DNA of 10,748 nt. It comes from a virus. A model generated the notes under the pieces. That model was not told the DNA's origin and did not search any database. It saw only the letters and a program-made list of their open reading frames with translations. The position numbers and the translations under genes are program-made. The stretch lies in UHGV virus genome UHGV-0162320; one strand, written 5' to 3'. Below are positions 8,671-9,070 of the stretch, piece after piece (position 1 is the first letter of the stretch; each line of letters starts with the position of its first letter).

Positions 8671-8810
8671 GCTCGCCAGTCCTGTGCGGGGGTGGAAGAA
8701 ACAGGACACTTACACTGATTCTTGTGAGCATGATGCTATGCCTTTCTGGATTATCCCGATGCCATTCATGCAGGGTGCTGTATCAGACGCTCGTCAGAGC
8801 TGTCAGGCTG

Positions 8811-8859
8811 ACGGGTCCTCCCGGTGGGGTGGCCTGCCACGGGGCGGGAGCGTCGCGGA
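8811..8859. other. lambda-type cohesive-end site (cosQ/cosN homolog); predicted 12-nt overhang GGGCGGGAGCGT at 8842-8853
   Basis: acgggtcctcccggtggggtggcctgccACG GGGCGGGAGCGT CGCGG aligns with the lambda right-end/left-end junction acgggtcctttccggtgatccgacaggttACG GGGCGGCGACCT CGCGG as recalled from memory; 8 of 12 cohesive-end positions identical. Confidence 0.55.
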
Positions 8860-9070
8860 AAAAGGCTGGTTTTTGCATTTTCATGGCGGCGGCAGCATGT
8901 GTGATAATTTATTGATAATTAAAAATTATTTCTGTTTTCACCTGTACAATATTTTTTTCTCCCTGTCATTAGACTAGTTTGCAATTAATTGAAATATATA
9001 AATAAATTGGTTTTTCACCTGCCAGATGGAGTTGCCTGTGCAAAACGTGTTCAGATGGCGGGATATTTAT

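Follow-up and report, generated by a model that had tools for sequence, protein, structure and literature searches.

Among lambda-like phages, the conserved parts of the cos site are cosQ (highly conserved), the left half of the overhang and the flanking CG dinucleotides, and differences at bp 7-12 are common, as in N15 (positions 9 and 12) and Gifsy-1 (positions 8, 9 and 11) (PMC4669245). Packaging specificity resides in the contacts between TerS and cosB (PMC4669245; PMC9026076). A further overhang, GGGCGGCGCGCT, was inferred for phages mEp213 and LLS in a 2025 paper citing Vahanian et al. 2017 (PMC12315714). Phage-like cos sites have also been described from PICIs, and both lambda and phi80 package plasmids that carry the cos sites of EcCICFT073 (Fillol-Salom et al.).

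In this study, a window of 10,748 nucleotides from UHGV virus genome UHGV-0162320 was analyzed with respect to a cos-like segment near position 8842, focusing on its anatomy, origin, distribution and relation to the terminase genes. Our reading, to which we give a probability of about 0.85, is that positions 8811-8858 represent the cosQ-cosN core of a lambda-family site, that the right half of its overhang confers no specificity, and that the window is a chimeric contig.

Anatomy and position of the cos core

The features located in the window are listed in Table 1. Positions 8807-8865 read gctg ACGGGTCCT c CCGGTG gggtggcctgcc ACG GGGCGGGAGCGT CGCGG aaaaagg, and the lambda termini, which were fetched and joined for comparison (J02459.1), read ACGGGTCCTTTCCGGTGATCCGACAGGTTACG, GGGCGGCGACCT and CGCGGGTTTTCGC. 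The blocks and flanks that the preliminary description had given for the lambda cosQ-cosN junction were correct against this record. The overhang GGGCGGGAGCGT had been described there as differing from lambda GGGCGGCGACCT by four central substitutions; the number is right, but the substitutions (positions 7, 8, 9 and 11) occupy the right half and are not strictly central. The anatomy of a lambda-like cos site is present: GGGTCCT is separated by 22 nt from the first overhang base (23 nt in lambda), the left half GGGCGG is common to the window and lambda, CG dinucleotides are kept beside both predicted nick sites, and the cosN core is partly symmetric, its rotational symmetry extending to 12 of 22 positions in the window and 10 of 22 in lambda. 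Relative to lambda, the spacer between cosQ and cosN has one base fewer (19 nt plus ACG versus 20 nt plus ACG). The cosQ heptamer was invariant among the nine distinct cos1/cdtI-type sequences that were aligned; the IMG/VR scan reported below is no test of its conservation, GGGTCCT having been built into the search pattern.

Table 1. Features of the 10,748-nt window, from left to right
Feature	Position	Strand	Remarks
Holin	6697-7056	+	ORF, Pfam, F11 annotation of native locus
First switch point	6898..6935		38-nt exact run, pac prophage/cos prophage, inside holin gene
Endolysin	7060-7536	+	ORF, Pfam, F11 annotation
Rz-like lysis protein	7533-7976	+	ORF, Pfam, F11 annotation
DUF6979 protein	7964-8389	+	ORF, Pfam, F11 annotation
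Small ORF	8488-8709	-
Conserved block ACGGGTCCT	8811-8819	+	Contains cosQ heptamer
cosQ heptamer GGGTCCT, packaging-termination element	8813..8819	+	Identical to lambda cosQ
cosQ-cosN spacer	8820..8841	+	22 nt (lambda 23); includes CCGGTG 8821-8826, then ACG
Second switch point	8833..8867		35-nt run, cos prophage/PICI cos1; contains cosN
cosN core, 22 bp	8837..8858	.	Partial two-fold symmetry CC.CG..GC....GC..CG.GG
ACG flanking top-strand nick	8839-8841	+
Predicted 12-nt 5' cohesive end GGGCGGGAGCGT	8842..8853	+	Nicks by homology
CGCGG flank	8854-8858	
cosB, PICI cos1 type, not of the phage to the left	8868..9025	+	100% identical to F11 island cos1
Invariant block CATGGCGGCGGCAGCATGT	8882-8900 (bp 41-59)		Among nine distinct cos1/cdtI-type sequences
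Two 39-nt AT-rich direct repeats	8906-8944, 8983-9021		77 nt apart, each ending TTTTCACCTG
Vestigial cdtI-type terS start	9026..9044	+	ATG at bp 185 of cos, as cdtI terS CDS
PICI small hypothetical gene, 57 aa	9136..9309	-	WP_001298307.1 at equivalent place in F11 island
PICI ClpP-like prohead protease/major capsid fusion gene, 5' part	9402..10729	+	Pfam CLP_protease and Phage_capsid_4, F11 annotation
Presumed Nextera transposase mosaic-end adapter CTGTCTCTTATACACATCT	10730..10748		Non-biological; F11 island continues AATCCCCATGG there

A pairwise alignment with the lambda cos junction, which had been proposed as a check, did not by itself support the assignment: the local alignment to the 62-nt lambda junction core scored 27, the rest of the window also gave 27 and shuffles reached 26, so the score is not above chance. 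For this reason, the case for a cos site rests on context and on related sequences. The ordered pattern ACGGGTCCT-N-CCGGTG-N(10-18)-ACGGGGCGG-N6-CGCGG, which was derived post hoc, was found once in the window and in none of 200 shuffles.

In intact prophages, including the F11 prophage and the loci L008-L014, the identical site lies downstream of holin, endolysin, Rz and DUF6979 genes, and is followed by genes for a DUF1441 protein, a TerL with GpA_ATPase and GpA_nuclease domains, a portal protein and a ClpP-capsid fusion; the TerL of L008-L014 carries PF05876 and PF20454. The ATG of terS is located 185-187 bp from the first overhang base in these prophages and in cdtI, and 191 bp in lambda. 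In the window, the late-gene context upstream of cos covers 6697..8709, and the switch of the contig to a PICI leaves it without terS and terL; the position between lysis and terminase genes is thus seen only at the native loci.

Genome ends in the databases fall at or close to the same place. The GenBank records of cdtI (AB285204.1 / NC_009514.1) and Tritos (OV696610.1) start exactly at the base corresponding to window position 8842, with gggcgggagcgtcgcgg, these starts having been set either by experiment or by analogy with lambda. In LR595868.1, a linear assembly of mEp460_4F5, the break lies 5 nt upstream of 8842, before the predicted top-strand nick. The ends of this assembly read GGGCGGGAGCG--CGG, with 2 nt (TC) inside cosN absent that are present in every other copy, a gap that probably arose through misassembly at the physical ends. 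The designation of the site as a cosN homolog with a variant 12-nt cohesive end is accordingly backed by position, anatomy and database genome ends.

A chance resemblance or a dead relic, that is, a GC-rich intergenic stretch without a current packaging role, would agree with the alignment score against lambda. We regard it as extremely improbable, given that the ordered blocks are exact, that the site occupies the canonical position in intact prophages whose head and tail genes are complete, that a satellite dependent on cos packaging has kept it twice, that it is conserved across many genomes, and that two phage records take it as the start of the genome.

Prophages of E. coli and their satellite islands frequently carry the site. 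An exact word of at least 28 nt in common with the 45-nt query 8826-8870 was found in 2039 of 5426 complete E. coli genomes (~38%). E. coli GF4, a 100% match to 8826-8870, was rejected as a counterpart of the window; its prophage is of cdtI type and departs from the window sequence further downstream. Among 126 sites of a flank-defined IMG/VR sample, 68 carried the lambda 12-mer, 24 carried GGGCGGGAGCGT (the second commonest type), 10 carried GGGCGGCGCGCT and 5 carried GGGCGGGAGCGG, together with seven rarer right halves. The Gifsy-1 overhang GGGCGGCAGCGT is one base from GGGCGGGAGCGT, the window overhang being that of Gifsy-1 plus C7G. A full-text search with GGGCGGGAGCGT and its reverse complement, the scope of which did not extend to the cdtI paper and Vahanian et al. 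2017, returned no phage paper, and a literature search on phage Tritos yielded unrelated papers only. The variant is nevertheless rated as already known, because GGGCGGGAGCGT is the deposited genome start of cdtI, and differences at bp 7-12 of a cos overhang give no ground for claiming novelty in genome scanning.

Origin of the window

The window was compared base by base with loci of E. coli F11 (NZ_CP076123.1) by counting mismatches. Three segments without any mismatch were obtained: window 1-6935 corresponds to a pac-type prophage at 0.45 Mb (+), 6898-8867 to an mEp460-type cos prophage at 4.99 Mb (+), and 8833-10729 to a PICI at 2.30 Mb (-). All three elements are present at 100% identity in F11, BH100 and related strains. 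The 119-aa 'holin' ORF 6697-7056 crosses the first switch. At the second switch, mismatches to the PICI end at 8832 and those to the prophage begin at 8868; spacer positions 8827, 8828 and 8832 have the prophage-type bases (GGGGTGG) and not those of the PICI (GTAGTGA). The prophage type represented by 1-6935 is widespread in E. coli and contains PolA, DUF2800/PD-(D/E)XK, an Enc34-like ssDNA-binding protein, Nmad5, a VapE primase-helicase and Q; its packaging is of the Terminase_2 small subunit type, without a cos-type terminase module downstream.

The last 19 nt of the window, CTGTCTCTTATACACATCT, correspond to a Nextera adapter, and its occurrence at the window end indicates that the source was an untrimmed short-read assembly. 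In none of the 5426 complete genomes was the span 8400-10748 contiguous, and the exact hybrid junction string (111-nt and 73-nt patterns) was absent from the viral, genome and metagenome contig collections searched. A search with the junction-spanning ORF did not find the hybrid, and look-ups of the holin, endolysin and VapE proteins returned parental elements only.

Judged from these identity patterns, the window is best explained as a path through a small-k de Bruijn graph that crosses repeats from pac prophage to cos prophage to PICI, and not as a real arrangement. By the same alignments, the cosQ-cosN core 8811-8867 is prophage sequence, and cosB (8868-9025), the vestigial terS start (9026-9044) and the genes beyond are those of PICI cos1. 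The source genome would be an E. coli of F11/BH100 type, in which the core would be present in at least two elements. The first would be an intact mEp460-type lambdoid prophage with Gifsy-2-like head genes, where the core would lie between the lysis cassette and the DUF1441 terS and gpA-family terL genes; the second would be PICI cos1.

The joint between phage and PICI could also be regarded as a real molecule, formed by annealing or ligation of the right end of the helper to the left end of the PICI, or else by packaging from PICI cos1 to the helper cos of a helper-embedded composite. The switch interval 8833-8867 contains cosN exactly, the 12-nt ends of helper and PICI are identical, and co-oriented helper-embedded PICIs of this family exist (L043; configuration in PMC10111431). 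Joining at cos leaves the other switch unexplained, however, since that one lies in a 38-nt holin repeat between unrelated prophages. Furthermore, the three segments of 100% identity map megabases away from each other in F11, with one on the opposite strand, the 35- and 38-nt runs could merge graph paths at k ~35 or less (e.g. k=31), the contig ends in an untrimmed adapter, and the joint is absent from 5426 complete genomes and three contig collections. Both versions are therefore very improbable, and a real cos-cos joint or a deletion in a helper-embedded composite was rejected as the main reading on account of the three perfect F11 segments and the 38-nt switch unrelated to cos. The chimeric contig has a practical consequence: satellites copy the cos of their helpers, so that short-read graphs fuse phage and satellite contigs at cosN into false 'hybrid' elements, and untrimmed adapters flag such contigs.

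Overhang, terminase module and packaging specificity

Terminase genes downstream of the IMG/VR sites were related to the overhangs. In 52 interpretable cases, the genes after the lambda 12-mer were of Nu1/gpA type or, once, Rpp-like, and five further lambda-12-mer sites had no recognisable terminase gene downstream. Downstream of GGGCGGGAGCGT, each of the 21 interpretable cases had DUF1441-type genes, and 19 of them a TerL of mEp460/cdtI type. The identity of this TerL to lambda gpA is ~24%; no similarity was detectable between the DUF1441 TerS and Nu1. The same DUF1441/TerL module was also found with the right halves CGCGCT, CGGACT, CTGGCT, CGAACT, AGGACT, CAGCGG and GAGCAT, and GAGCGG precedes a DUF1441 gene of a PICI (PICI cos2). 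At least nine different right halves, GAGCGT included, are consequently associated with the module, rather than one overhang with each terminase; sites of the lambda module likewise show AAGGCG and CAGCGG right halves. As one module uses many right halves, the right half is not tied to the enzyme.

Experimental work points in the same direction. Lambda TerL nicks right-half variants efficiently, and the lambda and N15 terminases show no cosN specificity (Feiss 2015, PMC4669245); these experiments concerned the TerL proteins of lambda and N15, which are 65% identical, and included neither a TerL ~24% identical to gpA nor a four-position change with position 7. A literature search on DUF1441 found no study of the family and no experiment on the mEp460/cdtI-type TerL class.

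According to an earlier reading, this TerL class requires GAGCGT, a lambda-type TerL would not cut the site, and cosN is a separate specificity. It could appeal to the partition described above, in which the lambda overhang occurs only with Nu1/gpA-type or Rpp-like genes and GGGCGGGAGCGT only with DUF1441-type genes, to the low identity of TerL to gpA (just ~24%), to the difference of 1 bp in cosQ-cosN spacing between the classes, and to the satellites, since the overhang of PICI cos1 is that of the co-resident prophage and the overhang of EcCICFT073 is that of its helper. The DUF1441/TerL module, however, occurs with many right halves, PICI cos2 carries GAGCGG, lambda-module sites carry AAGGCG and CAGCGG, and right-half changes were neutral for nicking, with no cosN specificity between lambda and N15 (PMC4669245), and we consider this reading quite improbable. 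The preliminary description had supposed that a diverged overhang may mark a distinct packaging specificity. This survives as a correlate of the terminase module, and is abandoned as a determinant in view of at least eight other right halves and the published experiments (PMC4669245); the overhang itself is unlikely to determine specificity.

The DUF1441 class comprises no fewer than two types of cosB/TerS, the mEp460 type and the cdtI type, with 42% identity between their TerS proteins, and specificity is expected to lie in the cosB/TerS of this class. By homology with lambda, TerS would bind at cosB and place a dimer of TerL on cosN, whose symmetry is partial. The predicted nicks made by TerL are 8841^8842 (top strand) and 8853^8854 (bottom strand), which would leave a 5'-GGGCGGGAGCGT overhang, and the terminating cut would be supported by cosQ. 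The right half of the overhang would drift freely across the family, packaging specificity being set by cosB and TerS.

The right half may instead serve as an end-compatibility label and not as an element recognised by the nuclease, although we hold this to be unlikely. The helper prophage and the PICI have exactly GGGCGGGAGCGT in common, and EcCICFT073 and its helper exactly the lambda 12-mer. Two mismatches alone caused a fourfold loss of yield (PMC4669245). If the label were real, the 4 of 12 mismatches to lambda-type ends would block cross-annealing and the cyclisation of hybrid molecules, and right-half variants would split lambdoid phages and satellites into groups without end-to-end joining. 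What deserves attention is that this very common cos class of E. coli relies on a DUF1441 small terminase together with a strongly diverged TerL of the gpA family, an under-studied pair.

The F11 island and comparison with known systems

Starting at 8811 and proceeding rightward, the window sequence corresponds to an island of 10 kb that F11 carries between cspD and clpS. The island encodes an integrase, an HTH protein, an Icd-like protein, DUF4222, a primase and SSB, followed by cos, a small gene, the ClpP/capsid fusion, a second cos and DUF1441. Its layout, its size of ~10 kb, its cos sites and the lack of a full virion gene set are those of a Gram-negative PICI. The two cos sites are co-oriented and have different cosB types (L003 9001-9250 and 11535-11760): cos1 consists of GGGCGGGAGCGT, a cdtI-type cosB and a vestigial terS start, and cos2 of GGGCGGGAGCGG and a cosB resembling that of mEp460, the gene after cos2 encoding a DUF1441 homologue of TerS with 67% identity to the helper protein. 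The two cosB types may widen the helper range of the island. A terminator-like hairpin with a T-run stands immediately before each cosQ of the island, and the one before cos2 contains GGGCGGCGAC, probably by chance.

The 39-nt direct repeats of cosB were conserved in nine of nine distinct cos1/cdtI-type sequences and are candidate TerS or Rpp-like binding elements. The homology to phage terS stops near 9044-9049. No Pfam match was obtained for the 57-aa protein encoded by 9136..9309, and the protease/capsid fusion gene has just 66-71% nucleotide identity with that of the helper prophage. An inverted repeat of 12 nt, ACTACTGTAATA/TATTACAGTGGT, is present in the native mEp460-type cosB of the F11 cos prophage (L155 8947-8976). 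Counted from the cohesive end, it spans bp 55-84, close to the place of R3 in lambda (bp 50-65; PMC9026076).

A relative of the F11 PICI, co-oriented, was observed inside the TerL (GpA_ATPase) gene of an mEp460-type prophage (L043, IMGVR_UViG_2574179916_000005, 1-11983). Its cos1 is located 8.1 kb downstream of the helper cos, and it fits the helper-embedded PICI configuration of PMC10111431.

The packaging experiments with EcCICFT073 were considered as proof that lambda terminase cuts GGGCGGGAGCGT and were rejected as such. Both EcCICFT073 cos sites (L147 13529 (+) and ~14339 (-), in opposite orientation) carry the lambda overhang GGGCGGCGACCT, and the experiments therefore do not bear on GGGCGGGAGCGT. 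A lambda-like prophage at icd, ~30 kb from EcCICFT073, has the same GGGCGGCGACCT overhang. No similarity was detected between the F11 DUF1441 TerS homologue and the candidate Rpp of EcCICFT073, the latter being assigned by its position beside cos. The F11 island is a PICI lineage parallel to EcCICFT073 and adapted to DUF1441-type helpers.

Compared with lambda (J02459.1), the site has the same GGGTCCT, CCGGTG, ACG and CGCGG flanks, GGGCGG left half, 12-nt 5' overhang and partial symmetry, and the same location between lysis genes and terS, with the ATG ~185-191 bp from the end. It differs at overhang positions 7, 8, 9 and 11, in a spacer shorter by one base, in an unrelated cosB without lambda R sequences, and in being served by a DUF1441 TerS without detectable similarity to Nu1 and by a TerL ~24% identical to gpA. 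Gifsy-1 (GGGCGGCAGCGT) shares cosQ, the flanks and the changes at 8, 9 and 11 relative to lambda (PMC4669245), but has C at position 7, where the window has G, and annotated Nu1- and gpA-like terminase genes in place of the DUF1441 module. Another right-half variant, GGGCGGCGCGCT, was inferred for mEp213 and LLS, which have Gifsy-2-like fused protease-capsid genes (PMC12315714); their right half differs from lambda at positions 9 and 10, and GGGCGGCGCGCT was found in the IMG/VR sample with the same DUF1441/TerL module as GGGCGGGAGCGT.

EcCICFT073-type PICIs (Fillol-Salom 2018, 2019) resemble the F11 island in layout, in having two phage-like cosQ and cosN sites, and in a cosN equal to that of the co-resident prophage, and differ in their own overhang, GGGCGGCGACCT, whereas the F11 island encodes a DUF1441 TerS homologue. 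In cdtI, Tritos, mEp460 and related E. coli prophages, the 12-mer and its flanks are identical to the window. No difference from cdtI, Tritos and mEp460 was found in cosQ-cosN, the left flank of the window is 100% identical in mEp460-type prophages, and to the right of 8868 the window has the PICI cos1 version of the cdtI-type cosB instead of a phage cosB.
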